In this document: piece by piece, positions 14,682-54,179 of the stretch
Layout of the letters: each line of letters starts with the position of its first letter
Position numbering within the stretch: position 1 is the stretch's first letter
Assembly: GCA_964392435.1 (NCBI GenBank)
Contig: CAYMOY010000002.1
Location: 116,479-180,478, forward strand
Source of the DNA: Candidatus Micrarchaeota archaeon
Lineage (GTDB): Archaea > Micrarchaeota > Micrarchaeia > Anstonellales > Anstonellaceae
DNA length: 64,000 nucleotides
Direction of reading: 5' to 3'
Notes under the pieces: generated by a model
What the model was told of the DNA's origin: nothing
Database searches by the model: none
What the model saw: the letters and a program-made list of their open reading frames with translations, nothing else
Program-made: the position numbers and the translations under genes

Positions 14682-14702
14682 ATACCTGCGCGTTTTTCCT
14701 GC

Positions 14703-36785: not shown

Positions 36786-36823
36786 TTTTATTGGTTTAGG
36801 TCAAAATGATAGAAGGTGAGAAT

Positions 36824-37156
36824 ATGCGGAACGGTTTTTTGCTATTCATATTTGTGCTGGCCCTCTCCGCAACCTCATGCGCCACTATGCTTGGCAGCGT
36901 GCAGGATGCGGTCTCCCAGCTTTGCCTCAACCTCAAAAGCCTAATTCCAGTGGTTGCGATGATGATGCTGGTGTTGGGCGGGGTAATCTATGCAGCCGGG
37001 CAGATGATGGGGGCTGAGACGCGCGCAAGGGCGAATGTGTGGGCGACTGCCTGCCTGACAGGCGCGCTGATTGCGATACTGATTGTCGTCGTGGCGCAGC
37101 CGGTGCTGCAGACAATATACGGCGACCTTGGCACCATTTCATGCGATGTGGCTTAG
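36824..37156 (+). CDS. pilin-like small secreted two-helix membrane protein, paralog 1 (VirB2/TrbC-like topology)
   Basis: Signal peptide MRNGFLLFIFVLALSATSCA; conserved core KSLIPVVAMMMLVLGGVIYAAGQMMGAETRARANVWATACLTGALIAILIVVVAQPVL; SD aggtga. Confidence 0.6.
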   Translation: MRNGFLLFIFVLALSATSCATMLGSVQDAVSQLCLNLKSLIPVVAMMMLVLGGVIYAAGQMMGAETRARANVWATACLTGALIAILIVVVAQPVLQTIYGDLGTISCDVA

Positions 37157-37202
37157 ATTTGTTTAAATTTCTTTTCTGAGAATAAGAGAAAGGAGGGATT
37201 TG

Positions 37203-37544
37203 ATGGGGAAATTGGCAGTATTGCTTGCGTTTGCGGTTGTTGGCGGCATGTTGTTTGCCACAGTGAACCCGCTTTCCAATGTTAATGAGGCTGTAAACAC
37301 ACTTTGCAAAGGCTTGAAGAGCCTGCTTCCGATTGCCGCAATGATGGCAATAGTGCTTGCCGGCGTGATTTATGCTGCGGGGCAGATGATGGGCGCTGAG
37401 ACACGCGCAAGGGCGAACGTCTGGGCGACTGCCGCACTGACAGGCGCGCTGATTGCGATACTGATGGCTGTGGTTGCGCCTGCCGTTCTGGGAATGATAT
37501 ATGGCAGCAGCTGGAGCACCGGAGTAAGCAGTTGCATTGCTTGA
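37203..37544 (+). CDS. pilin-like small secreted two-helix membrane protein, paralog 2
   Basis: MGKLAVLLAFAVVGGMLFA signal; same core; SD aggaggg. Confidence 0.6.
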   Translation: MGKLAVLLAFAVVGGMLFATVNPLSNVNEAVNTLCKGLKSLLPIAAMMAIVLAGVIYAAGQMMGAETRARANVWATAALTGALIAILMAVVAPAVLGMIYGSSWSTGVSSCIA

Positions 37545-37635
37545 TTTTTTTCCTCATTTTTCTTTTTTCCAAATACCCCTTAGTTTAAAATGTTTATTCT
37601 CGAATAGGCATCAACAGTACTTTAGGAGGGATTTG

Positions 37636-37959
37636 ATGGGGAAAATAACGGTATTGCTTGCGTTTGCGGTTGTTGGCGGCATGTTGTTTGCCACAACGCC
37701 TCTGGACAATGTCAATTCTGCGGTGAGCAGCCTTTGCAGTGGCTTGAAGAGCCTGCTTCCGGTTGCTGCCATGATGGCAATAGTGCTTGCAGGTGTCATC
37801 TATGCGGCAGGGCAGATGATGGGGGCTGAGACGCGCGCAAGGGCGAATGTGTGGGCTACTGCCGCGCTGACTGGTGCGCTGATTGCGATACTGATGGCTG
37901 TGGTTGCGCCTGCCGTTCTAAACACAATATACGGAACGCAAGGAACTATCCAATGCTGA
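37636..37959 (+). CDS. pilin-like small secreted two-helix membrane protein, paralog 3
   Basis: MGKITVLLAFAVVGGMLFA; near-identical core and upstream region to paralog 2; SD aggaggg. Confidence 0.6.
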   Translation: MGKITVLLAFAVVGGMLFATTPLDNVNSAVSSLCSGLKSLLPVAAMMAIVLAGVIYAAGQMMGAETRARANVWATAALTGALIAILMAVVAPAVLNTIYGTQGTIQC

Positions 37960-38038
37960 GTTTTTTTCTCATTTTTCTTTTTTCCAAATACCCCTTAGTT
38001 TAAAATGTTTGCCGGAAAATTTCCATAAGGTGATTGCG

Positions 38039-38509
38039 ATGGGATTTGCACGGTCCATTTCGGTTTTCTTGCTCGTTTTGCCCTTGGCTTTTGCATCAGG
38101 CACGCCGCTTGCTTCGGTGAATCAGGCGGTTTCCTCTCTTTGCAGCGGGCTAAACTCCCTTCTCCCGGTTGCCGCCATGATGGCAATAGTGCTTGGTGGG
38201 GTCATCTATGCTGCCGGGCAGATGATGGGGGCTGAGACGCGCGCACGCGCCAATGTATGGGCAACCGCCTGCCTGACAGGGGCAATAATCGCAATAATGA
38301 TTGCAGTTGTCGGGCCGGCTGTTCTCAAGATGATGTATGGGCAGGAGCTAGCGTGCGGGGGCAGCAGCCAACCGCCCACAGGCTGCCAGGCAGGATATTC
38401 GGCCTGCGGAACAGGGGGGCTTTGCTGCGGCGGGTCAACCCCGAAATGCTGCAACCCATCTAGCGCCCCAAGCTGTGCGAGTAATAACGCACTGTGCACC
38501 ATATCTTGA
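38039..38509 (+). CDS. pilin-like paralog 4 with Cys/Gly/Ser-rich C-terminal extension
   Basis: MGFARSISVFLLVLPLAFASG signal; same core; tail GGSSQPPTGCQAGYSACGTGGLCCGGSTPKCCNPSSAPSCASNNALC. Confidence 0.55.
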   Translation: MGFARSISVFLLVLPLAFASGTPLASVNQAVSSLCSGLNSLLPVAAMMAIVLGGVIYAAGQMMGAETRARANVWATACLTGAIIAIMIAVVGPAVLKMMYGQELACGGSSQPPTGCQAGYSACGTGGLCCGGSTPKCCNPSSAPSCASNNALCTIS

Positions 38510-38600: not shown

Positions 38601-39344
38601 ATGGCTATTGATTTTCATATTACCGCAAAGCCCAAGCTCAAAAAGCCAGTCCTGGTGGAAGGCTTTCCCGGCCTTGGCCTGGTGGGCACTATTTCGGCAA
38701 GCTACCTTGTTGAAAAGCTGAAGATGGAGCCGCTGGGCTACATTACAGGTGACCAGTTCCCACCGCTTGCCGCGGTGCACAACAGGCGCCCGCTTTATCC
38801 TGCGCGCATGTATTACTCCATCCGCCACGACCTGATAGTTTTCATATCTGAATTCGTGATTCCGATAGCTGCGGTGAACGAGCTTGCGGACAAAATCCAC
38901 GATTTTGCGAAAAAGAACCGGGTGAGCAGGATAATCTCCTTGGGCGGAATCACGATAAAAGGCGAGCAGGACGAGGTTTTTGCAATCGCATCCCTTCCGG
39001 AGCTTATCCCTGCGCTTGAGAGGCTGCCTAGCGTAAAGATGATAAAGGAGGGCGCCACCACGGGAGTTACCGGGGTGCTTCTGGCAAGGGGCGCGGTGGA
39101 GAACTATCCGGTGATTTCCCTTCTTGCAGAGTCGCAGGAAGGCTACATGGACCCAAAAGCGGCTGCCATGGTCTTAGAAGTGCTAAAGGCGATGCTCAAG
39201 TTCGACATTGACACCAAGACGCTGGAAAACGAGGCGAAGGCGATTGACACCAAGGTGAAAGATGTCATGAGCAAGGCAAAAACAGCGCACAGCGATTACA
39301 AAAAGGTGCAGGACGGCGCAAGCCTCGGCCCCATGTACGGCTAG
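38601..39344 (+). CDS. PAC2-family proteasome-assembly chaperone (PbaA/PbaB-like)
   Basis: MAIDFHITAKPKLKKPVLVEGFPGLGLVGTISASYLV matches the PAC2 N-terminal signature. Confidence 0.6.
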   Translation: MAIDFHITAKPKLKKPVLVEGFPGLGLVGTISASYLVEKLKMEPLGYITGDQFPPLAAVHNRRPLYPARMYYSIRHDLIVFISEFVIPIAAVNELADKIHDFAKKNRVSRIISLGGITIKGEQDEVFAIASLPELIPALERLPSVKMIKEGATTGVTGVLLARGAVENYPVISLLAESQEGYMDPKAAAMVLEVLKAMLKFDIDTKTLENEAKAIDTKVKDVMSKAKTAHSDYKKVQDGASLGPMYG

Positions 39345-39416
39345 CTGACAATCGGCGGGTAGGAACCGTTTTAATAGCCATTTGCCCAAGCGCAATTACC
39401 GACTCTTAGAGGTGTT

Positions 39417-40031
39417 TTGATGGAAGAATACAGGCTGCCTGATTTGCCTTATGCATACGACGCGCTGGAGCCCTATATTGACGAGGCCACCATGAGGCTG
39501 CACCACGACAAGCACCACAAGACATATGTGGACAAGTTCAACGCCGCCCTTGCAACAGTGCCGGAGTTCCGCGCAAAGGTGGCAAGCGCCGAAGATGCGC
39601 TGCGCGACCTTTCCGCCGTGCCTGAAAGCATCAGGGGCGCGGTGCGAAATCATGGGGGAGGGGCAGTGAACCATTCGTTTTTCTGGAGCGGCATGACAAG
39701 CGAAAGGCAGTCTCCAAGCGGAAAGCTTGCCGAGGCGCTTTCCAGGAAATTCGGAAGCGTAGACAAGTTCGAGGAGGCGTTCTCCGCTGCCGCGGCAGGC
39801 GTGTTCGGCAGCGGCTGGTGCTGGCTTGTCCTGAACGGAAGAGAGATGGAAATAATGACCACTCAAAACCAGGACAGCCCGCTCTCTGTTGGCAAGATGC
39901 CGCTCCTCACCTTGGATGTTTGGGAACACGCATATTATAAAAAATATGGCCCAGCCAGGGTTGAATACATCAAGAACTGGTGGAATATAGTAAATTGGCA
40001 GAAAGTCGAGGAGAATTATAAGCTACGCTAA
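39417..40031 (+). CDS. sod: Fe/Mn superoxide dismutase
   Basis: LPDLPYAYDALEPYIDEATMRLHHDKHHKTYV ... DVWEHAYY. Confidence 0.85.
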   Translation: MMEEYRLPDLPYAYDALEPYIDEATMRLHHDKHHKTYVDKFNAALATVPEFRAKVASAEDALRDLSAVPESIRGAVRNHGGGAVNHSFFWSGMTSERQSPSGKLAEALSRKFGSVDKFEEAFSAAAAGVFGSGWCWLVLNGREMEIMTTQNQDSPLSVGKMPLLTLDVWEHAYYKKYGPARVEYIKNWWNIVNWQKVEENYKLR

Positions 40032-40847
40032 AGAAGTAGCCGCATTCAAACTAAGCCAGTTTTTCAGATATATAATTTTTTCCTCTTTTAATTTCGTAGT
40101 GCTGATATTTTCAAAGAATCTTTTTATGCATTCTTTTTTATAGACCCTCAGATGGTAAGCTCTTTTTCGATTATCGTCTTTTGGTTCCTGAATGGAATAA
40201 GCTGATATTATGCTCGCTTCATTCAGTATTTTTCTTATGGATTCTAGAAAACCATAGTTCGTATTGGTGATGTCTAGGCATATCTTCGGAGTCCTTCTTA
40301 CTTTCTCTTTTATGATTTTGACACAGCCTTCTGCATCAAAAAAACCTTCAACGAACAACAATTTTGAACGCATGTCTGTTTGTGCCAATAAATTTTCCAA
40401 ATAAACAGAATTCTCTCGCGCCTTTTTGAAAAATGAGTAAAGTTCAAAATTGTTTGACCTAACAAACCACACATTTTTACTTCGAATGATGTATGGTTTA
40501 TCTACTTTGGAAATGCATGAAGCCAGCATCTTAGAATATTTTTTTGTGAATATTCTGTCCCCCACAAGAATAACGTAATTCCTAGTTATTTTCCAATTAT
40601 AGATGCAGCCGTCGCCTAGTAAAGCGCCAAGCACATAGAAAAGCTCTGGTTTTATCATGATTTTTCCTTTGCGCCCGTTGGGTAGGTAATCTCCCTTATA
40701 CCAACAATAAATAGTCCCTCTCGGCAAGGAAAATTTATTATGGACGATATTAACGATATCTCTTCGGGGGACGTTTTCTGCTTTGAGCTTTTCGAAAAGA
40801 GCAAATGCCCGAAGCCTAACTGTGTGATTTGTCCGTATGCCCACCAT
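40023..40847 (-). CDS. LAGLIDADG homing endonuclease (double-motif), AT-rich foreign gene
   Basis: LGALLGDGCIY (motif 1) and FVEGFFDAEGCV (motif 2). Local GC visibly ~35% vs ~58% surroundings. In frame with, and 15 nt downstream of, the truncated integrase ORF. Confidence 0.75.
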   Translation of the reverse strand: MVGIRTNHTVRLRAFALFEKLKAENVPRRDIVNIVHNKFSLPRGTIYCWYKGDYLPNGRKGKIMIKPELFYVLGALLGDGCIYNWKITRNYVILVGDRIFTKKYSKMLASCISKVDKPYIIRSKNVWFVRSNNFELYSFFKKARENSVYLENLLAQTDMRSKLLFVEGFFDAEGCVKIIKEKVRRTPKICLDITNTNYGFLESIRKILNEASIISAYSIQEPKDDNRKRAYHLRVYKKECIKRFFENISTTKLKEEKIIYLKNWLSLNAATSLA

Positions 40848-40862
40848 GTAGATAACTGAATT

Positions 40863-41444
40863 TCAGCTCTTTATATGCCATCTTTGAGTAGGATGCCAGT
40901 GGAACTTGAGCTTGAGGTATAGCAATTCACCTATTCTGCAGCCTGACTCGTATAATGCCAAAATAAGCGCCTTGTCGCGCGGATTAGTGGTCGAGTTGGC
41001 GAGCTTTTGGGCTTCCTCAACGGTCAGCAATTCCTCGGGTAGCTCGTGCTTCTCGTTTTTCAACCTTGGCTTGAGCCACTTTATCACGGCTGGAAATTCC
41101 TCATCCTTTCCGAAAAGCCATTTGTAGAACATCTTGAGCACGATTTTGAAATCGTAGCGTGTGTATTCGGCATAGTTTTTGGAGTCAATGTCGGTAACCA
41201 GCCGAATGAGGTCTGTCTTTGTCGCCTTTGAAAAATCCTTGTTGAGCCACTGCGCAAGCAAGCAGACACAATACATGCACTTGACAACGCGGAGCTTGCC
41301 AGAGCCTTTCGCCAGTCTCATCAGTGCGAAGTTTTCAATCTGTGTTTTGGCTTTCGTAGGCAAGGCGGAGGCCTTCAATATTCCAAGCGCCTTCTCAAAG
41401 TCAGTTTGAGATTTATACATAACGTAATCGTTCATAGGGGTCAC
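40863..41444 (-). pseudogene. truncated tyrosine-integrase paralog (N-terminal ~180 aa only)
   Basis: First ~180 aa nearly identical to the intact integrase at 52748..53956. Diverges after LYLKLK into FHWHPTQRWHIKS-stop; catalytic R/H-x-x-R/Y domain missing. Confidence 0.7.
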
Positions 41445-41547
41445 CTGTGAGCCCCCTGTCCTGCTCTAAGTAGTATTTATATTTAGGCGAGACACACAAC
41501 GGAGGCAGACTCAGGTGTATGTCTAAGGCTAGCAGTAAGACTAGTGC

Positions 41548-41569
41548 ATCATACAAGGTGCAGGGGGAG
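41548..41569 (+). repeat. att-core-like direct repeat of tRNA-Leu 3' end (atcatacaaggtgcagggggag)
   Basis: 20/22 identity to 54084..54105 (atcatgcaagatgcagggggag), which spans the tRNA-Leu 3' terminal 11 nt plus 11 nt of 3' flank. Followed leftward by ~100 bp homologous to the integrase upstream arm. Confidence 0.6.
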
Positions 41570-41616
41570 CAACACAAGGATGATGCTAGAGGCTGAAGGA
41601 TGGAAAAAAGAAAAAA

Positions 41617-42223
41617 TCAAGCTTTTTTGTCCTTCCTCAGGCACATGAACCAGTCAAGGCAGTATTTCCCCTCCTCCTTCTTTTCCATTCTTTCCTTTGC
41701 AACTCCGCACGAGCCAGGGGTGGGGATTATGACGTCGTCGCCAGGATACCAGTTGGCAGGCGTTGCTATCCCTTCGCTGTCAGATTTCTGCATGGCTACG
41801 AGCAGGCGCTTGATTTCCTCCATGTTCCTTCCGTTGGAAAGTGGGTAGTAAAGTATTGCCCTTACCTTGGCTTTCGCATCAATTATGAAAACCGCCCTCA
41901 CTGCCTGCGTGTTTGAGGCATTGGGCTGCACCATGCCAAACTTTTTTGCGACCTCCATCCTTATGCCCTCAATCAGAGGGAACTTGACCTCGACATTCTT
42001 CATTCCCTTGTACTCGATCTTTTCCTTGATTGTCCTAAGCCACGCGATGTGTGCATATATGCTGTCAATCGACAGCCCGATGAGCTCGCAGTTAAGGCTC
42101 CGCAAATCATCCTGCATGGATGCAAAGGTCATGAACTCGGTTGTGCAGACCGGTGTAAAGTCTGCCGGGTGGCTGAAGAGTATTACCCATTTGCCGGTGT
42201 AGTCTTCCGGGAATTTAAGAATG
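41617..42223 (-). pseudogene. peroxiredoxin (1-Cys/Prx6-like archaeal Prx), C-terminal part, split by IS insertion
   Basis: Reading upstream of the track ORF in frame gives ...[44 protein letters not shown]... (peroxidatic-Cys region). N-terminal 20 codons lie at 42900..42958 on the other side of the IS. Confidence 0.7.
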
Positions 42224-42899
42224 TTGCCTAGTGCTCGCTAAATCCAGCGGGCGTAGCCCGCGAACCCGCCTTCAGGCGGGGGATACAGCGAGCACATTCT
42301 TCTTTTTGACCTGAAAAATAAGTTCCAATAGCGGCGCGGCGGCGCTTTCGCGCCGCCCATGTTTGGCCGACTATTGGAGTTGTAGACTATGACCAGCGAA
42401 AGCTTTGTGAGAAGACAGCACAGCGTAGGAATAAATGCCTTTCACTTTGAGTGGTGCCCAAAGTACAGGTACAAGGTGCTTGGGGGTAACTGGCTGAGGC
42501 GTATTCTGACTGAAAGTCTTTGCCAGACTGCCAAAAAATACGGCATTCAGATTTTTGCAATGGAAATCGCCCTTGACCACCTGCACATGTTCGTAAACCT
42601 GCCTGGCTTGCTTGGTCCAAGCCAAGCAATCAATCTCTTCAAGGGCAGGAGCGCCAAGGCAATATTCGAAAACTGCCCATCATTCAGGAAAACCTATAGG
42701 GCTGGGCACTTCTGGAGTCGTGGCAGTTTCTACAGGTCAGTTAGCAACGTCGGGGCTGACACGATTTACAGGTACATAACAGAACACAGAAGCAAGGAGA
42801 TTACAGAATCAGTTGTTGCGGTGGAAAAGGAGTTTGGGCAGATGAATCTGGTGTCCTTCATGTAGTCGAAAACTGCCCCCTTCAGGGGGCAGATATTTA
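42224..42899 (+). mobile_element. IS200/IS605-family insertion sequence (tnpA only) inserted in the peroxiredoxin gene
   Basis: Carries Y1/HUH transposase; subterminal hairpins cccgcc-ttca-ggcggg (left) and ctgccccc-ttca-gggggcag (right). Joining the flanks restores ...[14 protein letters not shown].... No target duplication evident, as expected for this family. Boundaries +/- 2 nt. Confidence 0.7.
42389..42865 (+). CDS. tnpA: IS200-like transposase TnpA (HUH Y1)
   Basis: LDHLHMFVNL (HuH), conserved Y in C-terminal SFYRSV/YRYI region, ~158 aa typical of IS200 TnpA. Confidence 0.75.
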   Translation: MTSESFVRRQHSVGINAFHFEWCPKYRYKVLGGNWLRRILTESLCQTAKKYGIQIFAMEIALDHLHMFVNLPGLLGPSQAINLFKGRSAKAIFENCPSFRKTYRAGHFWSRGSFYRSVSNVGADTIYRYITEHRSKEITESVVAVEKEFGQMNLVSFM

Positions 42900-42958
42900 T
42901 TCTCGCCCATCGTGGTTTTGGCTGTGAAGCGTGGGGCATCGTCCCCTATCAGCGGCAT
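42900..42958 (-). pseudogene. peroxiredoxin N-terminal fragment (MPLIGDDAPRFTAKTTMGEN)
   Basis: Manual translation. Continues as read-through into the IS hairpin in track ORF 42809..42997. Confidence 0.6.
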
Positions 42959-43054
42959 GCTCGATTGCTTGTTTGCAGGTTCGTCCATCCATCTCACCTC
43001 GCAAAAGGTTGCTGCATGAACATATAAAAATGTTTATGAATAATAATTCAAAAC

Positions 43055-43420
43055 ATGCCAAGGCCTGAAAAGACGAGAAGGATTTGCTGCGAGCCCGGGG
43101 TAAGCTACTTCAAACCGCGGGGAGTCCCTATGGGCGAGCTTGAGGAAATCGGGCTAGGGCTCGACGAGTTCGAGGCTCTTCGTATGCTGGATTTTGCAGA
43201 GCTCGGGCAAGAAGAGGTTGCGAAGAAAATGAACGTCTCCCAGCCCACGCTCTCGCGAATCATCGCATCCGCACGGAAGAAGGTTGCAGAGGCGATCTGC
43301 GGGGGCAAGGCAATACGCATAGAGGGGGGCATATATTCCGTAGCCGGCCCAGGCATGCACCGTTTTTGCGGGTGCCATGGAAGGCACGGCAAACTGAGGC
43401 CCGACACATTACGGAGATGA
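43055..43420 (+). CDS. DUF134/UPF0251-family predicted DNA-binding protein
   Basis: MPRPEKTRRICCEPGVSYFKP...LDEFEALRMLDFAELGQEEVAKKMNVSQPTLSRIIASARKKVAEAI: sigma-70 region-4-like HTH typical of DUF134. Confidence 0.55.
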   Translation: MPRPEKTRRICCEPGVSYFKPRGVPMGELEEIGLGLDEFEALRMLDFAELGQEEVAKKMNVSQPTLSRIIASARKKVAEAICGGKAIRIEGGIYSVAGPGMHRFCGCHGRHGKLRPDTLRR

Positions 43421-43426
43421 TGCAGG

Positions 43427-43828
43427 ATGGAAAACCAGGGACTCTGCCATTTGCACCTGACCATTAACGCCAAGGTGGCGCTGGAAGGGAGGGAGCTTAC
43501 GAAGGAGCGCTGTGAGCGTTTTGTGAAGAAGCTCTTGAAAGTTGCGGACATGAAGCCGCTTTGCGCCCTTTGCTATGCCGATGCACTTGACAAGGGCAAC
43601 CCCGGGCAGAGCTTTGTCCAGATGATAACCACCAGCCACTGCTCGCTCCATTATTTCTCGAAGAGCGGCGAGATTTACTTCGATCTTTATTCATGCAAGA
43701 AATTCGACCCTCAAAAAATCGTTTCCCTGATCCACCGCGAATTCAGGACAAGGGAAAGCACCGTCTCTGTGACCGAGCGAGTCTCCTGCGGCGGCGGCAA
43801 GTCGATGATGTTCCAGAATCTTCATTAA
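43427..43828 (+). CDS. pyruvoyl-dependent decarboxylase proenzyme, SpeH/AdoMetDC-like (small archaeal type)
   Basis: GLCHLHLTINA start and MITTSHCSLHYFSKSGEIYFDLYSCKKF, matching the ESH-x-IHTWPE...D-x-F-x-CG processing-site pattern. Confidence 0.5.
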   Translation: MENQGLCHLHLTINAKVALEGRELTKERCERFVKKLLKVADMKPLCALCYADALDKGNPGQSFVQMITTSHCSLHYFSKSGEIYFDLYSCKKFDPQKIVSLIHREFRTRESTVSVTERVSCGGGKSMMFQNLH

Positions 43829-43837
43829 GGTGGCAAA

Positions 43838-44950
43838 ATGTCTGCGGGCAAACTCACTTTAGCTGTGTTGTTGCTTTTCCTTGCAGAGGCGGCATTCGCA
43901 GCGGGCAATGCAAGCAGCGGCGCCTGCGCATATTTCTTCTATGGGACGGGCTGCCCCCACTGTGCAAAAGTCGAGCCTTACCTCAACTCGATGGAGGGCA
44001 ACGGCAGTCAGATTCTTAAGTTCGAAGTCTACTCCAACCGCACCAACCTGGCGCTGCTTAACTCGTTTTTTGAGGCATACGGCGTGCCCGTCGAAAGCAG
44101 GGGTGTGCCCGCAGCATTCCTGCCGGACACCTACCTGGTAGGGGACGAAGAGATAATCGGCAAGCTCCCCGCCGCTCTTGCCGCCTCCAAGGGGGAGGGC
44201 TGCCCGTCAACCAACATCACATCCTGCGTTCCAGGCTCGGCAGGCGACTCCTCCCCTGTGGAAAAGCTTGGCGAGCTTTCGCTCATAACAATAGTGAGCG
44301 CCGCGCTTGTGGATTCCATAAACCCCTGCGCAATCGCCGTGCTCATAATACTGATGGGCGCGCTTCTTTCGACCGGTGACAGGCACCGCGCGCTTTTCGC
44401 AGGAATCGCCTTCACGCTTGCGGTCTACATTGCATATTTCCTCCTTGGGCTCGGGCTTTTCTCGGCAATACAGATGAGCGGGCTTGCCTATTTTGTCTAC
44501 AAAGCAGTAGGCGTGCTTGCCATACTCATAGGGCTTGCCAACCTCAAGGACTATTTCTGGTACGGGGGCGGGGGGTTTGTAATGGAAATCCCACGCTCAT
44601 GGCGCCCCGCGCTCAAGGGCATGCTCAACAAGGCGACTTCACCTCTTGGCGCGTTTGCAATGGGCTTCGTTGTCTGCCTTTTCGAGCTTCCCTGCACAGG
44701 AGGGCCTTATTTCTTCATACTTGGGCTGCTTGCCGAAAAGTCAACCTGGCTTGCCGCAGTGCCTGTTCTCCTGATATACAACATCTTTTTCGTGGTTCCG
44801 CTCGTGGCGATAACGCTTCTGATATACTTCGGGCTTACAAATGTCGAAAAGGCGGACAAGTGGAAGGAGCGCAACCTGCGGCTGCTGCACCTCGTGGCGG
44901 GAATAGTGATGACCGCGCTCGGGCTCCTTGTCGTGCTCGGCATAGTCTAG
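43838..44950 (+). CDS. thioredoxin-fold (CPHC) domain fused to CcdA/DsbD-like transmembrane thiol-disulfide transporter
   Basis: Signal/anchor, then YFFYGTGCPHCAKVEPYL; membrane domain with Cys-containing TM motifs SINPCAIAV and ELPCTGGPYFF. Confidence 0.5.
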   Translation: MSAGKLTLAVLLLFLAEAAFAAGNASSGACAYFFYGTGCPHCAKVEPYLNSMEGNGSQILKFEVYSNRTNLALLNSFFEAYGVPVESRGVPAAFLPDTYLVGDEEIIGKLPAALAASKGEGCPSTNITSCVPGSAGDSSPVEKLGELSLITIVSAALVDSINPCAIAVLIILMGALLSTGDRHRALFAGIAFTLAVYIAYFLLGLGLFSAIQMSGLAYFVYKAVGVLAILIGLANLKDYFWYGGGGFVMEIPRSWRPALKGMLNKATSPLGAFAMGFVVCLFELPCTGGPYFFILGLLAEKSTWLAAVPVLLIYNIFFVVPLVAITLLIYFGLTNVEKADKWKERNLRLLHLVAGIVMTALGLLVVLGIV

Positions 44951-45547
44951 GTGCATGGCATGATGGAAAACAAGAAGGCTGAGCTCCTGAACAGCAAGGC
45001 TGCGCGCGAGGAGAGCAAGGCAGGCGAGGTGGTTGCGGCTCTGCGCCTCAAGAAAGGCATGCGCGCAGCCGACATAGGCTCGGGCGGAGGCTACTTCTCC
45101 TTCCTGCTTGCCGAAGCAGTGGGGTCGAATGGCAAGGTGTACATGGTTGACACCAACCAAGAGCATCTTGATTTTTCAATGGCGCTGGCAAAAGAAAGGG
45201 GAATAAAAAACGTTGAGCCTGTCCTTGCAAGTGGAGGGATTCCCAACCTTCCGGAGCATAAGATTGACCTGATTTTCATGAGGAGCGTGTGCCACCACAT
45301 TAAAAACAGGGCGGATTATTTTTCGGCGCTAAAGCGCTTACTAGCGCTTGGAGGCAGGGTGGCGCTCATCGATTATTCCCGGGGCCCGTTCCTGCGCTTC
45401 CGCTGGCTTTTCGGGCACTATGTGGAAAGGGATGTGATAAGGAAGGAAATGCTCAAGGCAGGCTTCCATCTTGACGAAAGCTTCGATTTCATTGCACGGC
45501 AGTGGTTCATGGTCTTTTCGCCCTTGCCCTCCCAAGAATCGCGCTGA
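44951..45547 (+). CDS. class I SAM-dependent methyltransferase
   Basis: ADIGSGGGYFSFLLAEAV (motif I). Confidence 0.55.
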   Translation: MHGMMENKKAELLNSKAAREESKAGEVVAALRLKKGMRAADIGSGGGYFSFLLAEAVGSNGKVYMVDTNQEHLDFSMALAKERGIKNVEPVLASGGIPNLPEHKIDLIFMRSVCHHIKNRADYFSALKRLLALGGRVALIDYSRGPFLRFRWLFGHYVERDVIRKEMLKAGFHLDESFDFIARQWFMVFSPLPSQESR

Positions 45548-46379
45548 ATCTGGAAAGGTACGCCATGCTTCGCAGCGCAATTGGGCGGGAGTCTATGGTG
45601 GCGCGCAGGATTTCCCTGCTGAACGGAAGTTCGCCGATTATTTCCAGCCTTCGCCTTTTTGCGAACGACCTTATCCTGCCAGCCATCTTTTTGGAAAGCG
45701 TGCTCTTGTTCAGCACGATTCCGCAGGGCACTCCGAAATGCTTTCCCAGCCTCCACGCCCTTTCAAGGTCATGGAGCGCCGCAGGGGTGGGCTCGGTGAC
45801 GGCAACCAGGCAATCAGCGCCGGATATCGAAGCTATCACCGGGCAGCCTATGCCTGCTGCGCAGTCTATTATGATGTCCTCCGCCCCCTCCTTTTCAGCC
45901 ATCTTCTGTGCAAACGCCCGGACCGCGGTCACTGCTTCGCCCGATGCCTGCTCGCCAATCTCAAGCTCGCCGGTGGCAAGAAGAATGCCGTGCGTTTTTC
46001 CCGTGCTTATGCCGCCTATTCTCTTCCTTGAAGGCGACAGCGCGCCGTTCGGGCAGGCTGCAATGCACGCGCCGCACCCTACGCAAAGCTCGGGCGTTAT
46101 TATGGGCGGGAAATCCTTTGGCGCGGCAATCGCCTTTTTCATGCACACCCTTGCGCAGGCGCCGCAGCGCCTGCATTTCTCCTCGTCAAGCTTCGGCACC
46201 ATGCCCCAGATGGTTTCAGCCTCCTTCATCCTTGCGCCAAGAAGCACATGGGAATTGGGGCATTCCACGTCGGCATCCACAAGAAGCGTTCTGCGCTGCC
46301 GCGCGCCCGCAATAGCAAGCCCGGTGGCTATGAACGTCTTGCCCGTTCCGCCCTTCCCTCCGCTCACCGCAATTTTCAT
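45507..46379 (-). CDS. MinD/ParA-superfamily P-loop ATPase with inserted double 4Fe-4S ferredoxin domain (COG1149-like)
   Basis: MKIAVSGGKGGTGKT; CRRCGACARVC and CVGCGACIAACP; start moved to MKIAV (46379). Confidence 0.65.
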   Translation of the reverse strand: MKIAVSGGKGGTGKTFIATGLAIAGARQRRTLLVDADVECPNSHVLLGARMKEAETIWGMVPKLDEEKCRRCGACARVCMKKAIAAPKDFPPIITPELCVGCGACIAACPNGALSPSRKRIGGISTGKTHGILLATGELEIGEQASGEAVTAVRAFAQKMAEKEGAEDIIIDCAAGIGCPVIASISGADCLVAVTEPTPAALHDLERAWRLGKHFGVPCGIVLNKSTLSKKMAGRIRSFAKRRRLEIIGELPFSREILRATIDSRPIALRSMAYLSRFSAILGRARAKRP

Positions 46380-46392
46380 CAAAAGCACCCGA

Positions 46393-46755
46393 TTAATGGG
46401 AATGGCTTTCGCACCCGTCGCCCTCCTTTGCTTTCCGAAGCTTCCCCTCAAGATGAAGGGCGAATGCCTCGCCCACACTAGTGCCCTTGGGCGCAAAGTA
46501 GACTTCGATTGAATGCTTTTTGCACAACTGCAGCGCCTTTGGCCCCATGCCGCAGCAGACTATGGCGCCCACACCTTTTTCAGCCAGGAGCTCAACCGGC
46601 ATCTTGTCGCCGCCAAAATGCGTGCTGGTGTTCTTTATCGAATTTTTCGCCTTTCCGCCCATCCAAAGCACCAAAAAATAAGGGCTTGGGCCGAAATGCT
46701 CAGCCACGTTCTGCTCTGTGCCGTTTTCCTTTCCAACCGGGAATGCAACCTTCAT
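46393..46755 (-). CDS. NifX/NifB-C-terminal-like (dinitrogenase FeMo-cofactor-binding fold, PF02579-like) small protein
   Basis: MKVAFPVGKENG...VAEHFGPSPYFLV...IVCCGMGPKA. Confidence 0.5.
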   Translation of the reverse strand: MKVAFPVGKENGTEQNVAEHFGPSPYFLVLWMGGKAKNSIKNTSTHFGGDKMPVELLAEKGVGAIVCCGMGPKALQLCKKHSIEVYFAPKGTSVGEAFALHLEGKLRKAKEGDGCESHSH

Positions 46756-47090
46756 CGCTTCACCTTCACTTTTTCAAGCGCCTTTTCCGCCGCGCCTGTC
46801 GCTTCCGCCATTTCAATGCCCCATTTGGAAAGCATATCAGAGGCATTTGGGCCGAATTGCCCGGCAACCACCACGCTTGCCTTTTTTTCAGCAACAAGCG
46901 AGGCTGCGGAAATTCCCGCGCCAGGCGCATCCGCAAACGGGTTGGCGATGCTTTCCAGGAGCCTTGGCTTCCCCTTGCCGGTTTCCAAGAAATTGAAGAC
47001 TGCGCATCTGCCGAAATTCGGGTGCACGCTGCAGGCAGGCCATTTTCCATCGGAGCATATGGCAACTATCCTCTTTTTTTCCCCAGCCAT
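46752..47090 (-). CDS. second NifX/NifB-like small protein
   Basis: RIVAICSDG...FGRCAVFNF...VVVAGQFGPNA; 4-nt overlap with downstream paralog. Confidence 0.5.
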   Translation of the reverse strand: MAGEKKRIVAICSDGKWPACSVHPNFGRCAVFNFLETGKGKPRLLESIANPFADAPGAGISAASLVAEKKASVVVAGQFGPNASDMLSKWGIEMAEATGAAEKALEKVKVKR

Positions 47091-47094
47091 GCAA

Positions 47095-47352
47095 TCACTT
47101 CCCCTTTTTCTCCGAAAGCAGCTTCCTTATCGCTTCGGCCTCGCTTTCGAGCGCGGCAAGCCTTGCCTCAAGCGCAGCCTTGTCGCCTTGCGCCGCCGGA
47201 GGGTATGCCATTGCGCCCCTTCTGCAGCCGCCCCTGCCCATCCCCATGCCGCGCCCTGCGCCCATGCCCCATCCCCTTCCAAACTCCCTCGGGCCCGCAG
47301 GCCCGGTCCCGTCCAAACCCGGCATAATACCACCTAATGAATATGTATTCAT
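47095..47352 (-). CDS. Gly-rich/coiled-coil small protein (DUF5320-like)
   Basis: GMGAGRGMGMGRGG then ALEARLAALESEAEAIRKLL; heads the minus-strand NifX/MinD-Fer operon. Confidence 0.4.
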   Translation of the reverse strand: MNTYSLGGIMPGLDGTGPAGPREFGRGWGMGAGRGMGMGRGGCRRGAMAYPPAAQGDKAALEARLAALESEAEAIRKLLSEKKGK

Positions 47353-47427
47353 AACTGTTTTAATACCAGCAGCCGTGGTAAGCGCTTTTTATTCATTGCC
47401 GCCCTCAAACGCAAGAAGGTCATCTAC

Positions 47428-48288
47428 ATGCAATCCGGCGACATCTGGCTCCCGCTCCTGCTTGCATTTCTCGCAGGGCTGTCAACCGCAATCGGCGGGC
47501 TCATCTGCCTATCCATCCGCAGGTTCGACCAGCGCTACTTGGCATTTGGCCTCGGGCTTTCGGCGGGCGTGATGATTTACGTTTCATTTGCCGAGCTTCT
47601 GGCATCCGCTGTCCTGCAGACCGGCTTTTTCGCGGCAAACGTGGCCTTCTTCGGGGGCATGCTCGCCATCATGCTGATTGATTTTTTCGTGCCGCACAAT
47701 TACATCGCGGAAAGGGTCTGCTCCGGCATGCCAAACGTGCCCATCAGCGCGCCGCTTGGCTCCGCAATGCACAGCCAGTGCAGGCTCCGCGGCTTTGGCA
47801 GAGGGCAAAGGATGAGGCATGGCATGCACAGTCACCACCGCCTTGCAGTTGCAGGCACGTTCACCGCAATCGGGATAGCGATACACAACCTGCCAGAGGG
47901 GCTGAGTGTGTTTCTCGGAGGGGTTGCCGACCCTGCGCTTGGCATCACGCTTGCATTTGCCATAGCAATGCACAACATACCTGAAGGGATTGCAATCGCA
48001 CTGCCGATTTACTACGCCACAAAAAGCCGCGCAAAAGCGTTCCTTTACACTCTCGCAGCAGGGCTTGCCGAGCCTTTTGGGGCGATTCTCGGCGCGCTTT
48101 TCCTCCTTCCGTTCCTTACGCCCAATTTCCTGTCCCTTTCCCTCGCGTTCGTGGGCGGCATAATGGTTTTCATAAGCTTTGACGAGCTGCTGCCGCTCTG
48201 CTTCGAGAACCGCGAAGGCAGCCACGCTTCGATACTGGGCATAATAATCGGAATGATGGCAATGGCGATAAGCCTGCACCTGATTTGA
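47428..48288 (+). CDS. zupT: ZIP-family divalent metal transporter (ZupT-like)
   Basis: HNLPEGLSVF and HNIPEGIAIALP motifs; ~8 TM. Confidence 0.7.
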   Translation: MQSGDIWLPLLLAFLAGLSTAIGGLICLSIRRFDQRYLAFGLGLSAGVMIYVSFAELLASAVLQTGFFAANVAFFGGMLAIMLIDFFVPHNYIAERVCSGMPNVPISAPLGSAMHSQCRLRGFGRGQRMRHGMHSHHRLAVAGTFTAIGIAIHNLPEGLSVFLGGVADPALGITLAFAIAMHNIPEGIAIALPIYYATKSRAKAFLYTLAAGLAEPFGAILGALFLLPFLTPNFLSLSLAFVGGIMVFISFDELLPLCFENREGSHASILGIIIGMMAMAISLHLI

Positions 48289-48305
48289 TTTTTGGCTGCT
48301 TCGCG

Positions 48306-49052
48306 CTAATGGTGCATCGAGCGCGCCACAAGCCAGATTATCGCCGCCCCAGCTATAAGAAGCATGAGCTGAAGTGCCGACTTTTTTGCGCTCTTCTCCT
48401 TGTGGAGCTCGGGCAGGAGGTCGGCGGCTGCGATGTATATGAACATGCCCGCAGTGAACGCAAGCGCAAAGCCCTCCATGTGCTCAACCATGCCTGAGAA
48501 AAAGTAGAAAAGCACCCCTCCGGCAACGGCTGTGAGCGCGGAAAGCAGGTTGAACGCAAGCGCCCTGGCGCGCGAAAAGCCGCTGTACAGCAACAGCCCG
48601 TAGTCTCCTATCTCCTGCGGTATTTCATGGAGCGCTATTGCCACTGTGGTGGTTACGCCAAGCGGAACATCCACCATGAAGGCAGCCGCGATTGCCACTC
48701 CGTCAAAGAAATTGTGCAAGCCGTCACCAAGGAGCGTGAGCGTGCCAAGCGGCTTGTGGTGCTCCTTTTCGCTTCCAGCATGGTGGTGGTGCCAGTGCAC
48801 CAGCTTTTCAAGGCAAAACGCTATTATGATGCCTATAAATACAAATTCAAGAGCAGTATGCGCATCCAGAATTTCCACTGATTCCGGGAGGATGTCGAAC
48901 AGAGCGGCACCAAGAAGCGTGCCGGTGGCAACGCTCACAAGGAAGAAAAGGTAATCGTCGATTTTCCTCTTTTCGAATATGAAAAGCACAATCCCGACGA
49001 GCGAAAGCATGCTGACAAACACCGTGGCGGCAATTATCTCAAACAACACCAT
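48306..49052 (-). CDS. second ZIP-family metal transporter (GufA-like)
   Basis: ALHEIPQEIGDYGLLL, His-rich loop HWHHHHAGSEKEHH. Confidence 0.65.
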   Translation of the reverse strand: MVLFEIIAATVFVSMLSLVGIVLFIFEKRKIDDYLFFLVSVATGTLLGAALFDILPESVEILDAHTALEFVFIGIIIAFCLEKLVHWHHHHAGSEKEHHKPLGTLTLLGDGLHNFFDGVAIAAAFMVDVPLGVTTTVAIALHEIPQEIGDYGLLLYSGFSRARALAFNLLSALTAVAGGVLFYFFSGMVEHMEGFALAFTAGMFIYIAAADLLPELHKEKSAKKSALQLMLLIAGAAIIWLVARSMHH

Positions 49053-49148
49053 GATGGCACCGTTAACGCATTTGAATGAAATAGTTATTAATATTTTCTT
49101 ATAATGTTATTAACAAGCGGCGCATTTTGCGCAGGAAATTATTAACAG

Positions 49149-49541
49149 GTGAAAAACATGCCCATAATCAGCGTTTCAATCGACAATGAAACCCTCTCAG
49201 AACTAGGTGCCATTGAGAAGTCGCTTGGCTTTTCAGGAAGAAGCGAGGCAATACGCGCCGGTGTGCGATCATTGGTCGCAGAGAACAGGAGCGTGGAAAA
49301 TCTGTCAGGCGAAATAAAGGCGGTGCTTCTTCTAGTTCACGAGGAAAACGCGGAGAAAAGCGCCTCCTTCCTTGCGCATGAATTCGAGGACGCGGTTTCC
49401 ACGCACATCCACAGCAACCTCAAACGCGAGAAATGCCTGGAGATATTCGTGCTTGCCGGAAGCGCGGAGCGCATCCGCGCGCTTTTCAAGGCTGCAAAAT
49501 CAAGCAGGAAAATGGAGTATGCGCGGCTCGTGGTGCCATGA
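49149..49541 (+). CDS. NikR-like ribbon-helix-helix metal-responsive regulator
   Basis: N-terminal RHH IISVSIDNETLSELGAIEKSLGFSGRSEAIRAGVRSL plus C-terminal ACT-like domain ...HIHSNLKREKCLEIFVLAG. Confidence 0.55.
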   Translation: MKNMPIISVSIDNETLSELGAIEKSLGFSGRSEAIRAGVRSLVAENRSVENLSGEIKAVLLLVHEENAEKSASFLAHEFEDAVSTHIHSNLKREKCLEIFVLAGSAERIRALFKAAKSSRKMEYARLVVP

Positions 49542-49696
49542 ACAAAAAGGGGAAAATAGTACATAAAAATAACGGCAACGCCAGCCTTGCAGCAGGCGCG
49601 CTTTTGGGCGTTGGGGCGGTTGCCTGCCCATGCCCGTTCTGCGTAGGCTCGGCGCTCCTTTTCCTTCTTAACGGAATACGCGAAGAACTCTCCTGA
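49538..49696 (+). CDS. small membrane peptide with CPCPFC motif (52 aa)
   Basis: ATG overlaps NikR stop. AGALLGVGAVACPCPFCVGSALLFLL is hydrophobic with a metal-binding-like Cys cluster. Speculative. Confidence 0.25.
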   Translation: MNKKGKIVHKNNGNASLAAGALLGVGAVACPCPFCVGSALLFLLNGIREELS

Positions 49697-49994
49697 TTTT
49701 CTGGTGCCTGGAAAGGTATAAAAACAGCCTCACCAAGAAAAGATATGGTGCTGAAATGCGGATGAGAACTGTTGCACACTGTTCTTTCCCTGTCATCAGC
49801 CACGCTTCTTTCTCCACCACGCAGACTACAACCGGGCTCTAGCCTTTGGTCTGGGTGACTGGCAAATTGCTCGGACCTCTTGAAAACGATTAGTTTTGAC
49901 TTTGGCTTTTGAAGGAGGACAAATTTCCAGAGAAATTTGTCCGCATTGGAAATTTATAGAATTTCCAATACAATAAAAAAATCGAGGTGTTCCA

Positions 49995-52745: not shown

Positions 52746-52747
52746 GC

Positions 52748-53956
52748 TTATTCCTCCAACAATTCCTTGTCCAGCCCCATCGCAAAAACCTTCTTGACCA
52801 GAAGCGCCTTCACCTCCGGGTCCTGCATAAGGACGTTCATTATCCCATTCCCCTGTTTGTTGTAGTCGCTGATGAGCACCTTTTCGTCAAACGGGTTGCC
52901 GCACCTGCCGCAGAAGGACTGCGTCGGCGAGTTCTTTTCCTTGCAGCGGGAGCAGATCCGAAGGTCGAGCTTGGGCTCTTTTTCGATTGGCTTGTCTTTC
53001 ATGGAATACATTTGCAGAAGCGCCGAGTCAACATCCCTGCCGGATAAATGAACATAGGTGGCAGCCATCTCGCTTCCCTGCGTCCAGCCGAAATACTCTT
53101 TCATTTGTGCTTCGGTCAGCTTGTTTGCGAGGGAAGTTGCTCGGCTGTGCCTGAACAAGTGCGGATAAATGCGTTTTCTTATGCCGCTTGCCTTGCTTGC
53201 CCTTCGGAGCATTGCGAGTATTGACGGGTACGAGCAAGGCACTGGCTGGTAGCGGGCAAGCCTTGCAGGCCATAATGGAGCGTCCGGATTGTTTTTGTCC
53301 GGATGTTCCTGAAGCCATGCGGCAAGAACCTGAGCGCTGGCAATTATTCTTACCCTTCTGCTGCCAGTCTTGCCGTTGACGATAAGCACAACCCCGTAAT
53401 TGTCGAACTGGACGTTCTTGAGCTTGAGGTAAAGCATTTCACCTATGCGGCAGCCGGACTCGTATAATGCCAAAACAAGCGCCTTGTCGCGTGGATTTGT
53501 GGTCGAGTTGGCGAGCTTTTGTGCCTCCTCAACGGTCAATAATTCCTCTGGCAGCTTGTGCTTTTCATTTTTCAGCCTTGGCTTGAGCCACTTTATGACC
53601 TTGGGAAATTCCTCGTCTTTCCCCAGAAGCCACTTGTAGAACATTTTGAGCACGATTTTGAAGTCGTACCTCGTATATTCCGCATAGTTTTTGGAGTCAA
53701 TGTCTGTAACCAGCCGAATAAGATCGGTCTTTGTCGCAGTCGAGAAATCCCTGTCGAGCCACTGGGCGAGCATTCGGACACAGTACATGCACTTGACAAC
53801 GCGGAGCTTGCCAGAGCCTTTGGCAAGGCGCATACGTGCGAAGTTTTCGATTTGTGTTTTTGCCTTCGCAGGCAAAGTCGAGGCTTTAAGCCGTTCCAGT
53901 TCCTGCTCGAAGTTGGTCTGCGATTTGTACATCACGTACTCGTTCATAGGGCTCAC
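52748..53956 (-). CDS. int: tyrosine recombinase/integrase (intact, 402 aa)
   Basis: C-terminal HLFRHSRATSL ... YVHLSG (R-H-R-Y catalytic pattern). ~140 bp from the 3' end of tRNA-Leu, same strand. Confidence 0.8.
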   Translation of the reverse strand: MSPMNEYVMYKSQTNFEQELERLKASTLPAKAKTQIENFARMRLAKGSGKLRVVKCMYCVRMLAQWLDRDFSTATKTDLIRLVTDIDSKNYAEYTRYDFKIVLKMFYKWLLGKDEEFPKVIKWLKPRLKNEKHKLPEELLTVEEAQKLANSTTNPRDKALVLALYESGCRIGEMLYLKLKNVQFDNYGVVLIVNGKTGSRRVRIIASAQVLAAWLQEHPDKNNPDAPLWPARLARYQPVPCSYPSILAMLRRASKASGIRKRIYPHLFRHSRATSLANKLTEAQMKEYFGWTQGSEMAATYVHLSGRDVDSALLQMYSMKDKPIEKEPKLDLRICSRCKEKNSPTQSFCGRCGNPFDEKVLISDYNKQGNGIMNVLMQDPEVKALLVKKVFAMGLDKELLEE

Positions 53957-54083
53957 CCCACGATGAGTCCCCTGTCCTGCTTGACCTTCTATATATACTT
54001 AGGCGAGACACGCAACGAGGTGAAGTTAGGGCATTGACGGATGACAGGCGAGGGGCTGTAAGATGCGGCGGTACACCTATAGA

Positions 54084-54105
54084 ATCATGCAAGATGCAGG
54101 GGGAG
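54084..54105 (+). repeat. att core at tRNA-Leu 3' end (atcatgcaagatgcagggggag)
   Basis: Direct repeat partner of 41548..41569. Confidence 0.6.
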
Positions 54106-54179
54106 AGATTCGAACTCTCGAAGGCGCTAAGCCACAAGGTCTTAAGCCTCGCCCATTTGACCGGCTCTGGAACCCCTGC
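54095..54179 (-). tRNA. tRNA-Leu (anticodon UAA), type II; CCA not encoded
   Basis: Hand-folded on minus strand: GCAGGGG-TT-CCA-GAGCCGGTCAAA-TGG-G-CGAGG-CTTAAGA-CCTTG-TGGCTTAGCGCCTTC-GAGAG-TTCGAAT-CTCTC-CCCCTGC-A. Confidence 0.8.

Follow-up and report, generated by a model that had tools for sequence, protein, structure and literature searches.

How does a free-standing LAGLIDADG homing endonuclease gene come to lie next to a truncated integrase gene in an archaeal chromosome? We addressed this question in a 64,000-nucleotide (nt) stretch of the genome of Candidatus Micrarchaeota archaeon (GenBank assembly GCA_964392435.1, contig CAYMOY010000002.1, forward-strand positions 116,479 to 180,478), hereafter the window. 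The host is a DPANN archaeon of ~53% guanine-plus-cytosine (GC) content. An earlier, sequence-only reading of the locus took the pair for the remnant of an older element in which the endonuclease gene had replaced the catalytic half of the integrase. Our analysis points to the gene on the other side of the endonuclease, sod, which encodes an Fe/Mn superoxide dismutase (SOD). The LAGLIDADG gene is likely the nuclease of a homing cassette that targets sod, and the integrase fragment is likely debris of unrelated elements that integrated at a tRNA-Leu gene. We lean, with distinctly less assurance, towards a broader proposal: that the cassette belongs to an active family directed at the DVWEHAYY-coding stretch of sod, that this family spreads, including between two domains of life, without help from an intron or intein, and that it is the first prokaryotic case recognised of a kind known from mitochondria, in which a mobile open reading frame (ORF) brings its own C-terminus.

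The endonuclease gene and its product

The gene encodes an intact LAGLIDADG protein with two motifs. Pfam matched it to LAGLIDADG_3 (PF14528, E = 1.9e-12) and LAGLIDADG_1 (PF00961, E = 5.2e-6), and both motifs were present (LGALLGDGC, with D79, and FFDAEGC, with E173). Among 59 homologues, E173 was invariant and D79 was found in at least 90% of the sequences. In profile matches to PI-PfuI and I-DmoI, the two residues aligned with the catalytic GDG and AEG motifs. An AlphaFold model made with the 59 homologues (predicted local distance difference test score 93.3, predicted template-modelling score 0.87) showed an N-terminal domain of three helices (residues 8-51) and, after it, two alpha-beta LAGLIDADG domains. 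These formed the pseudo-symmetric two-domain fold of the family, with two LAGLIDADG helices that each end in an acidic catalytic residue. The top Foldseek match of the model was I-DmoI (E = 5e-9, template-modelling score ~0.7 normalised to the target); I-Tsp061I and intein endonuclease domains were further matches. Nuclease activity of the protein is plausible.

The sequence-only reading had described a double-motif LAGLIDADG gene that is AT-rich, free-standing and without intein signatures, and all of this was upheld. GC content was 0.32-0.39 over positions 40000-40700 compared to ~0.5-0.6 on both sides, and 36% in the endonuclease gene compared to 57% in the body of sod, the part that runs through the DVWEHAYY codons. 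An Rfam search of 39000-43200 (E up to 1) gave no intron or ribozyme match and a single chance hit to a long non-coding RNA; no search was aimed at bulge-helix-bulge motifs. There was no rRNA or tRNA gene at the endonuclease site. An intron-encoded endonuclease was rejected on these two grounds. An intein was rejected because a stop codon lies between the integrase and endonuclease ORFs, the endonuclease gene is antisense to sod and Pfam found no intein domain. We found no close endonuclease, integrase or attachment (att) sequence in IMG/VR that would point to a virus origin. The earlier remark that such genes are uncommon in archaea needs qualifying, because this endonuclease family comprises at least 262 homologous cluster representatives (E ≤ 1e-3). 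Their length was conserved at ~265-295 amino acids (aa).

Association of the endonuclease family with sod

In the window, sod (39417..40031, plus strand) is convergent with the endonuclease gene, and the 3' ends of the two genes overlap by 9 nt. We examined ~45 distinct homologous loci (numbered with the prefix L) from DPANN archaea, Thaumarchaeota, Bathyarchaeia and bacteria of the candidate phyla radiation (CPR). One genome per species was scanned with endonuclease peptides alone; at an identity of at least 35%, this gave 36 loci. In all of them (36/36), the 3' end of the endonuclease gene directly adjoined a gene for an Fe/Mn SOD. The archaeal hosts were Nanoarchaeia, Woesearchaeota, Micrarchaeota, Aenigmatarchaeota, Bathyarchaeia, Thaumarchaeota and a Methanosarcinales-labelled bin, and the CPR hosts were Wildermuthbacteria, Paceibacterota and Doudnabacteria; the family thus resides in archaeal and bacterial chromosomes. 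The additional loci were metagenomic contigs with the closest homologues and six contigs from a SOD query. There, sod also adjoined the endonuclease gene (L002-4, L111-115, L061, L065, L083, L084, L101, L104). Distant LAGLIDADG matches (20-29% identity) had no SOD neighbour.

The arrangement of the two genes was narrowly constrained. Their stop codons were separated by a gap of 0 in 12 loci, overlapped by 8-62 nt in ~20 and lay 1-27 nt apart in ~9. The endonuclease gene was antisense to sod in 42 of the 44 loci scored; in two Thaumarchaeota loci it was co-directional and still at the 3' end of sod. None of the ~45 loci other than the window contained an integrase gene.

In at least 12 independent loci, a second sod C-terminus without a body was present beyond the endonuclease gene, on the sod strand. 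These orphan tails were cleanest in CPR loci. In L014, for example, the first codons of the orphan tail are TAC TAT, for the Tyr-Tyr of DVWEHAYY, and they lie 29 nt beyond the endonuclease start codon. Orphan tails that begin at the Tyr-Tyr codons suggest that the mobile unit consists of a replacement tail, an antisense endonuclease gene and ~30 nt, inserted inside sod.

Most sod loci were endonuclease-free. Presence and absence could be compared within one syntenic setting, in which L047 was empty and both the window and L113 were occupied. Interruption of the presumed target with a co-converted flank was seen in the orphan tails, in a breakpoint at nt 39938 of the window and in the first codons of the tails. 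Degenerate copies were also found (frameshifted, fragmented or N-terminally shortened; L040, L084, L029 and others), as expected for selfish endonuclease genes. Overall, the family apparently represents widespread, undescribed selfish cassettes that target sod and span two domains of life. Searches of the open-access literature turned up neither a homing endonuclease associated with sod nor cassettes of this kind in prokaryotic chromosomes.

A native/foreign hybrid sod gene in the window

The closest relative found, L047, is endonuclease-free and syntenic with the window over 32.5-40.0 kb. Its sod body is 82% identical to that of the window, and a ferritin gene, with no endonuclease gene, follows its sod after 10 bp. 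Compared codon by codon, the window sod showed 75-88% nt identity to L047 up to nt 39938, with a GC content of 0.48-0.68. Beyond this point, identity fell to 53-58% and GC content to 0.35-0.37. The window tail was closer to the tails of endonuclease-bearing alleles than to the L047 tail; the cassette-free L047 allele contains GATGTGTGGGAACACGCATACTACCTGAAATACCAGAAC. By identity and composition, the window sod is a native/foreign hybrid, with a host-like body and a foreign last 30 codons. The DVWEHAYY motif, at which the body ends, includes two SOD metal ligands.

The displaced native tail would be expected on the far side of the endonuclease gene. We observed that the 57-bp spacer from the integrase break to the endonuclease ATG is homologous to the region upstream of the endonuclease gene, including the orphan tail, in L111 and L112. 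In these two loci the orphan tail runs on to KVEENYKHALKI and a stop codon before tRNA-Leu. L112 has kept the entire decayed orphan tail between the endonuclease gene and the tRNA (ending in ALYMASASRIPLDFSAFDHIMKKVEENYKHALKI and a stop codon).

The 57 bp also contain a TATA-like box (ATATAAAG), ~25-30 nt before the endonuclease ATG. Its reverse complement spells decayed Ala-Tyr-Tyr codons of the orphan sod tail, and the box occurs at the same position in L111 and L112. The displaced half of the target may have been turned into the endonuclease promoter.

Divergence of the endonuclease, the tail and the sod body

We compared the three parts among five GC-rich hosts (window, L111, L112, L113 and L002). 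The endonucleases were 66-74% identical to each other, the tails 47-74% and the sod bodies 39-77%. GC content was 35-42% in the endonuclease gene and 32-43% in the tail, compared to 55-57% in the sod body. Between the window and L002, the endonuclease was 69% and the tail 68% identical, compared to 44% for the sod body. Incongruence between element and host gene was therefore seen in the GC-rich hosts (66-74% for the endonuclease versus 39-77% for the body), whereas across 34 loci the two co-diverged (rho = 0.52). Family-wide travel of the tail with the endonuclease was not supported (partial rho = 0.09); support for it came from the GC-rich-host group only.

The codons just after the motif separated the two classes of allele. 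A canonical [LIV][KQR]YQN followed the motif in 36 of 40 endonuclease-free alleles and in 3 of 42 endonuclease-bearing alleles, in a Fisher test that ignores phylogeny and with an endonuclease-free set gathered with window-SOD peptides. Occupied and empty sod alleles thus differ exactly where the right half-site of the target would be. A nucleotide-level recognition site from occupied versus empty alleles was dropped as confounded, because the empty set was retrieved partly through the peptide EYIKNWWN; the codons after the motif were used instead.

Four endonuclease-free sod alleles (L049, L050, L052 and L109) had non-canonical, cassette-type tails (ILYKW..., ILYKS..., IRYKW...). The L049 tail was AT-rich (31% GC compared to 48% in the body). 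No significant endonuclease remnants were detected downstream of sod in these four loci. We conjecture that they lost the endonuclease and kept an immune tail.

The integrase fragment and the tRNA-Leu elements

The ORF upstream of the endonuclease gene (40863..41444, minus strand) encodes a protein of 193 aa, of which the first 180 match the intact 402-aa integrase at 88.9% identity; the similarity ends abruptly after LYLKLK. At the DNA level, the two copies are 83% identical (40905-41501 versus 53417-54017). The sequence-only reading was accurate on the second integrase copy, given there as 180 codons at about 90% identity, and its homologous upstream arm of ~100 bp is real, since the DNA homology extends to 41501 and 54017 and a 22-nt repeat lies further upstream. 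It placed the endonuclease gene 15 nt after LYLKLK in the same frame. The frame is right, but 13 unrelated codons (FHWHPTQRWHIKS) and the stop at 40863 come first, and the 15 nt lie between that stop and the endonuclease ATG. The shared frame is a coincidence of no consequence.

The fragment keeps only the first catalytic Arg box (CRIGEL), matches positions 3-47 of the 172-position Phage_integrase profile with an E of 0.0032, which falls short of the Pfam cut-off, and does not retain the complete Arg-His-Arg-Tyr catalytic domain of a functional tyrosine recombinase. Sequence comparison with the intact copy revealed no integrase C-terminal half elsewhere in the window. An SSV-type split integrase was rejected, because the copy next to tRNA-Leu is whole, its att site is upstream of the coding sequence and the window holds no C-terminal fragment. 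Homologues of the intact integrase (74-96% identity) included several from named Micrarchaeota, and the zinc-ribbon integrase family comes so far mainly from Micrarchaeota metagenome bins. A public assembly of run SRR12133403 (L001), which may share reads with the window assembly, was 100% identical to window positions 39154-41301. This argues against an assembler-specific join, not against every assembly error.

The 22-nt repeat (41548-41569 versus 54084-54105) includes the last 11 nt of tRNA-Leu(UAA), and the att core lies ~115-140 nt upstream of the integrase start. The 29-nt junction pattern AGCATCATCCTTGTGTTGCTCCCCCTGCA (41559-41587) occurred once in the window, with 0 occurrences expected by chance. 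L122 has three copies of it and L123 a single one, which closes a 4.4-kb element; every copy lies in an element of this integrase family. The window att arm and truncated integrase are 80% identical to L123 at the nt level over 41569-40906, from the core to exactly 40906. Neither of these integrase-family relatives (L122 and L123) carries an endonuclease gene. Because the fragment keeps an att-type arm and lies tRNA-distal to the intact paralogue, which adjoins tRNA-Leu, the earlier description of it as the remnant of an older element stands.

L111 and L112, which have the closest endonucleases (72% and 70% identity), carry tRNA-Leu(UAA) 40-75 bp upstream on the same strand. Together with L113, they combine tRNA-Leu, the endonuclease gene and sod without an integrase. 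The gene order in L113 is small paralogues, a PAC2 gene, sod, endonuclease, ferritin, tRNA-Leu and purP genes, and the window shares L113 genes on both outer sides. This arrangement, and the L112 orphan tail that reaches up to the tRNA, suggest an earlier order in which sod and tRNA-Leu were adjacent and convergent. The window has its tRNA-Leu separated from the endonuclease gene by 13.2 kb (40905-54094), and the intact integrase lies at the tRNA end of this DNA. The 12.5 kb enclosed by the att repeats is headed by that integrase, and we call it element A; the truncated copy belongs to element B. The features of the locus are listed in Table 1.

Table 1. Positions of the sod, endonuclease, integrase and tRNA-Leu features within the window.
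Feature	Position	Strand	Basis
Native sod body, through the DVWEHAYY codons	39417..39938	plus	Pfam Sod_Fe_N and Sod_Fe_C; identity to L047
Putative cassette-borne replacement sod C-terminus, 30 codons and stop, KKYGPARVEYIKNWWNIVNWQKVEENYKLR	39939..40031	plus	Identity and GC drop after the motif
Double-motif LAGLIDADG homing endonuclease gene, monomeric, 274 aa	40023..40847	minus	Pfam, homologues, AlphaFold model
Endonuclease 5' region with TATA-like ATATAAAG box at 40869-40876	40848..40904	minus	Alignable with endonuclease-upstream regions of L111 and L112
Putative displaced, decayed native sod tail, first ~13 codons, ALYMPSLSRMPVE	40866-40904	plus	Alignment with L111 and L112
Integrase remnant of element B, N-terminal 180 codons	40905..41444	minus	Match to intact paralogue
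Integrase-proximal att arm of element B	41445..41558	minus	Homologous to arms upstream of the intact and L123 integrases
attR-type junction: distal arm of element A and 11-nt core CTCCCCCTGCA	41559..41587	minus	Core identical to tRNA-Leu 3' end
Intact paralogous integrase of element A, 402-aa ORF, C-terminal zinc ribbon	52748..53956	minus	Pfam Phage_integrase E 3.4e-19; NCBIfam XerA-like
tRNA-Leu(UAA), predicted integration target; last 11 nt form the att core	54095..54179	minus	ARAGORN

A proposed history of the locus

We propose that two unrelated mobile elements adjoin here by accident of neighbourhood. The first would be a cassette of ~0.95 kb, made up of a replacement sod C-terminus (~30 codons), the endonuclease gene on the opposite strand and ~30 nt of 5' region. 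Its site would be the end of the DVWEHAYY-coding stretch, the most conserved part of sod. The enzyme would cut a cassette-free sod around ...GAR CAY GCN TAY TAY / YTN AAR TAY CAR AAY..., and repair from a cassette-bearing allele would copy the cassette into the cut gene. Because the cassette supplies a new tail, sod would stay intact, and the native tail would be pushed beyond the endonuclease gene, where it would decay. Occupied alleles would be immune, since their site is interrupted and the first codons of the incoming tail have diverged.

The second would be elements of a Micrarchaeota tyrosine-recombinase family that used the 3' end of tRNA-Leu as their integration site and so came to lie between this tRNA and the endonuclease gene. 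Of these, element B would have integrated first and element A second, nearer the tRNA. A later deletion would have removed element B from integrase codon 181 on, together with most of the orphan sod tail, and would have left the integrase fragment 57 bp from the endonuclease ATG. A deletion ending inside the orphan tail is the most likely cause of the loss of the integrase 3' half. The relatives that have tRNA-Leu, endonuclease gene and sod without an integrase, and the sod-tail character of the 57-bp spacer, suggest that the cassette is probably older than the integrase elements. We infer both this order of events and the unity of element A.

Several points weigh against this reconstruction. 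Besides the design of the Fisher test on [LIV][KQR]YQN given above, endonuclease divergence tracks sod-body divergence (Mantel rho = 0.52, 34 loci), and tail divergence goes with that of the sod body, not with that of the endonuclease (partial rho = 0.09, 34 loci). These two correlations suggest that most associations are old or vertically inherited, or that homing takes place mainly between similar alleles. The proposed target site derives from insertion boundaries only, and the orphan tail of the window is a 13-codon remnant only. Inside element A, positions 43902-51566 are 85-88% identical to L116-L119, where the flanks differ and other integrases are present. Element A may be a large cargo island or a product of rearrangement.

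Alternative explanations

The LAGLIDADG protein could be an immobile, domesticated partner of sod, a DNA-binding regulator or a means of antisense modulation that is inherited, and occasionally transferred, with sod. Intact ORFs across dozens of deep lineages would fit such a role, as would the correlated divergence of endonuclease and sod body (rho = 0.52), the extra N-terminal three-helix domain and the convergent, overlapping 3' ends, whose transcripts could overlap. We nevertheless consider domestication unlikely. The family keeps residues at both acidic catalytic positions (invariant for E173, at least 90% of sequences for D79), and the endonuclease gene is AT-rich in all GC-rich hosts. 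Most sod genes, that of the closest relative included, lack the endonuclease. In the window, the sod body is native and the last 30 codons alone are foreign. Orphan tails point to repeated insertion inside sod, and degenerate copies exist.

It is more doubtful still that the sod-endonuclease pair spreads by ordinary transfer and homologous recombination, with an idle nuclease whose position reflects one ancient insertion. The same abutting-stop geometry in most loci fits a single ancestral insertion, and DVWEHAYY, as the stretch of highest homology, is where a crossover would fall anyway. However, endonucleases of ~70% identity sit in sod genes that are only 39-55% identical, so that recombination without help from the nuclease would repeatedly have to move one and the same block between very divergent alleles. 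In two loci the endonuclease gene lies at this end of sod in the opposite orientation, and the catalytic residues are maintained.

That the endonuclease was part of, or invaded, an older integrase element and replaced the integrase catalytic half, as the sequence-only reading proposed, is very improbable: although integrase homology stops at 40905, 57 bp from the endonuclease ATG, and the two ORFs share strand and frame, the family adjoins sod in all of the ~45 other loci and does so without an integrase, L111, L112 and L113 have tRNA-Leu, endonuclease gene and sod without one, the 57-bp spacer resembles the endonuclease-upstream and orphan-tail DNA of relatives rather than an integrase, and L122 and L123 have the integrase without the endonuclease gene.

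Related elements and neighbouring genes

Side observations were made on relatives of the integrative elements. L122, a Micrarchaeota contig with an 86%-identical integrase, carries the att junction at 2946-2974, 8523-8551 and 12945-12973, with a weaker copy near 7912-7940. The junctions bracket integrase-free cargo (a ParE toxin with its antitoxin, a 1354-aa S8 peptidase and a radical-SAM protein), and from this layout L122 looks like an array of cassettes serially integrated at one site. Other tyrosine recombinases, 26-31% identical to the window integrase, occur in the close relatives L116 (11954-13324) and L117 (249-1526). They bracket a block that is syntenic with window 43.9-51.6 kb (from a CcdA-like gene to prolyl-tRNA synthetase), and the 3' flank of the prolyl-tRNA synthetase gene is a junction in both. 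In L113 (4030-4200), tRNA-Leu matches the window tRNA in two pieces ~86 nt apart and was not called by ARAGORN; from this match it probably contains an intron. A similarly interrupted tRNA 3' half lies upstream of the integrase in L123.

Within the window, a 1-Cys peroxiredoxin gene (41617-42997, minus strand) is split by an insertion sequence of the IS200/IS605 type (~42215-42905). The insert carries tnpA (42389-42865, plus strand; Pfam Y1_Tnp) and has GC-rich hairpins at both ends. The peroxiredoxin N-terminus MPLIGDDAPRFTAKTTMGE lies upstream of the insert, and the frame resumes with NILKFPEDYTGKW. Just upstream of the PAC2 gene and sod, positions 36806-38509 hold four tandem paralogous genes for small proteins (~114-166 aa) with the core LCxGLKSLLPxAAMMxxVLxGVIYAAGQMMGAETRARANVWAT; the array is conserved in L047 and L113-L115. 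The CDC48-like ATPase of the window (14658-17441, 927 aa) finds its best named matches in Candidatus Micrarchaeota and Anstonellaceae, at 69-78% identity, and carries neither an intein-splicing nor a LAGLIDADG_3 domain. Several close homologues of this ATPase (P0307, P0309, P0311, P0312, P0318 and others) are 1350-1450 aa long and contain intein-splicing and LAGLIDADG_3 domains. On domain content, these inteins are a second, classical homing-endonuclease polymorphism in the same lineage.

Comparison with known systems

By the usual view, a prokaryotic homing endonuclease can occupy an essential or conserved gene without harm only by means of an intron or an intein. The sod cassette family appears to use a third way, which is to carry a spare gene end. 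To our knowledge, this strategy has so far been documented in fungal mitochondria alone. If our reading is true, the family is a natural lineage of LAGLIDADG enzymes, many and diverged, that share one predictable target, and it would be useful for the study of specificity evolution and as a source of meganuclease scaffolds. It would also mark gene flow between ultra-small archaea and bacteria of shared habitats. It would further mean that sod genes in these groups can have chimeric 3' ends, a point to heed in sod phylogenies and in the annotation of genomes. For the window, the annotation would be corrected to a native/foreign hybrid sod and an integrase fragment that is debris of a tRNA-Leu island array.

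The integrase fragment resembles tRNA-targeting tyrosine-recombinase elements, with an integrase by the tRNA, an att core formed by the tRNA 3' end, a repeat at the far end and tandem arrays with decayed distal members. In archaeal integrases of the pNOB8 type, the gene stays intact on integration. The likeness to tRNA-targeting elements holds for the integrase fragment only, not for the endonuclease gene.

I-DmoI and I-Tsp061I are LAGLIDADG endonucleases of archaeal rRNA introns. The window protein shares the monomeric two-domain fold with them and with the PI-PfuI and Tli VMA intein domains (Foldseek E = 5e-9 to 4e-8). It is only 16-22% identical to these proteins and has an extra N-terminal helical domain of ~60 residues. 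Unlike them, the sod endonuclease is associated with neither intron nor intein, and its target is the end of a protein-coding gene. T4 Seg and Mob and F-CphI (beside psbA) are free-standing phage endonucleases that act on a neighbouring gene. They resemble the sod cassette in lying beside their target, in co-conversion of flanks and in immunity through sequence differences of the occupied allele. They differ in being GIY-YIG, HNH or EndoVII-like, phage-borne and intergenic, and, unlike the sod cassette, they are not known to replace a gene end or to leave an orphan copy.

The closest described precedent of the sod cassette is the mobile ORFs (mORFs) of fungal mitochondria. In these, a LAGLIDADG or GIY-YIG ORF lies inside a conserved protein gene without an intron or intein, and a foreign C-terminus keeps the gene whole (PMC3630166). 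They form 'gene hybrids' in atp6, atp9, cox2 and nad3 (Allomyces macrogynus atp6; Glomus sp.); the native C-terminus is duplicated downstream, the inserted C-terminus is the more diverged, and distribution among close relatives is patchy (PMC3630166). Like mORFs, the sod cassette combines an endonuclease ORF and a foreign C-terminus inside a gene, with the native C-terminus downstream. Unlike mORFs, which reside in organelles, it is found in prokaryotic chromosomes and its target is sod. The sod-cassette endonuclease gene is antisense, with its own predicted promoter, whereas the mORF is in phase or co-transcribed. The sod family also differs from mORFs in keeping one target across two domains of life.

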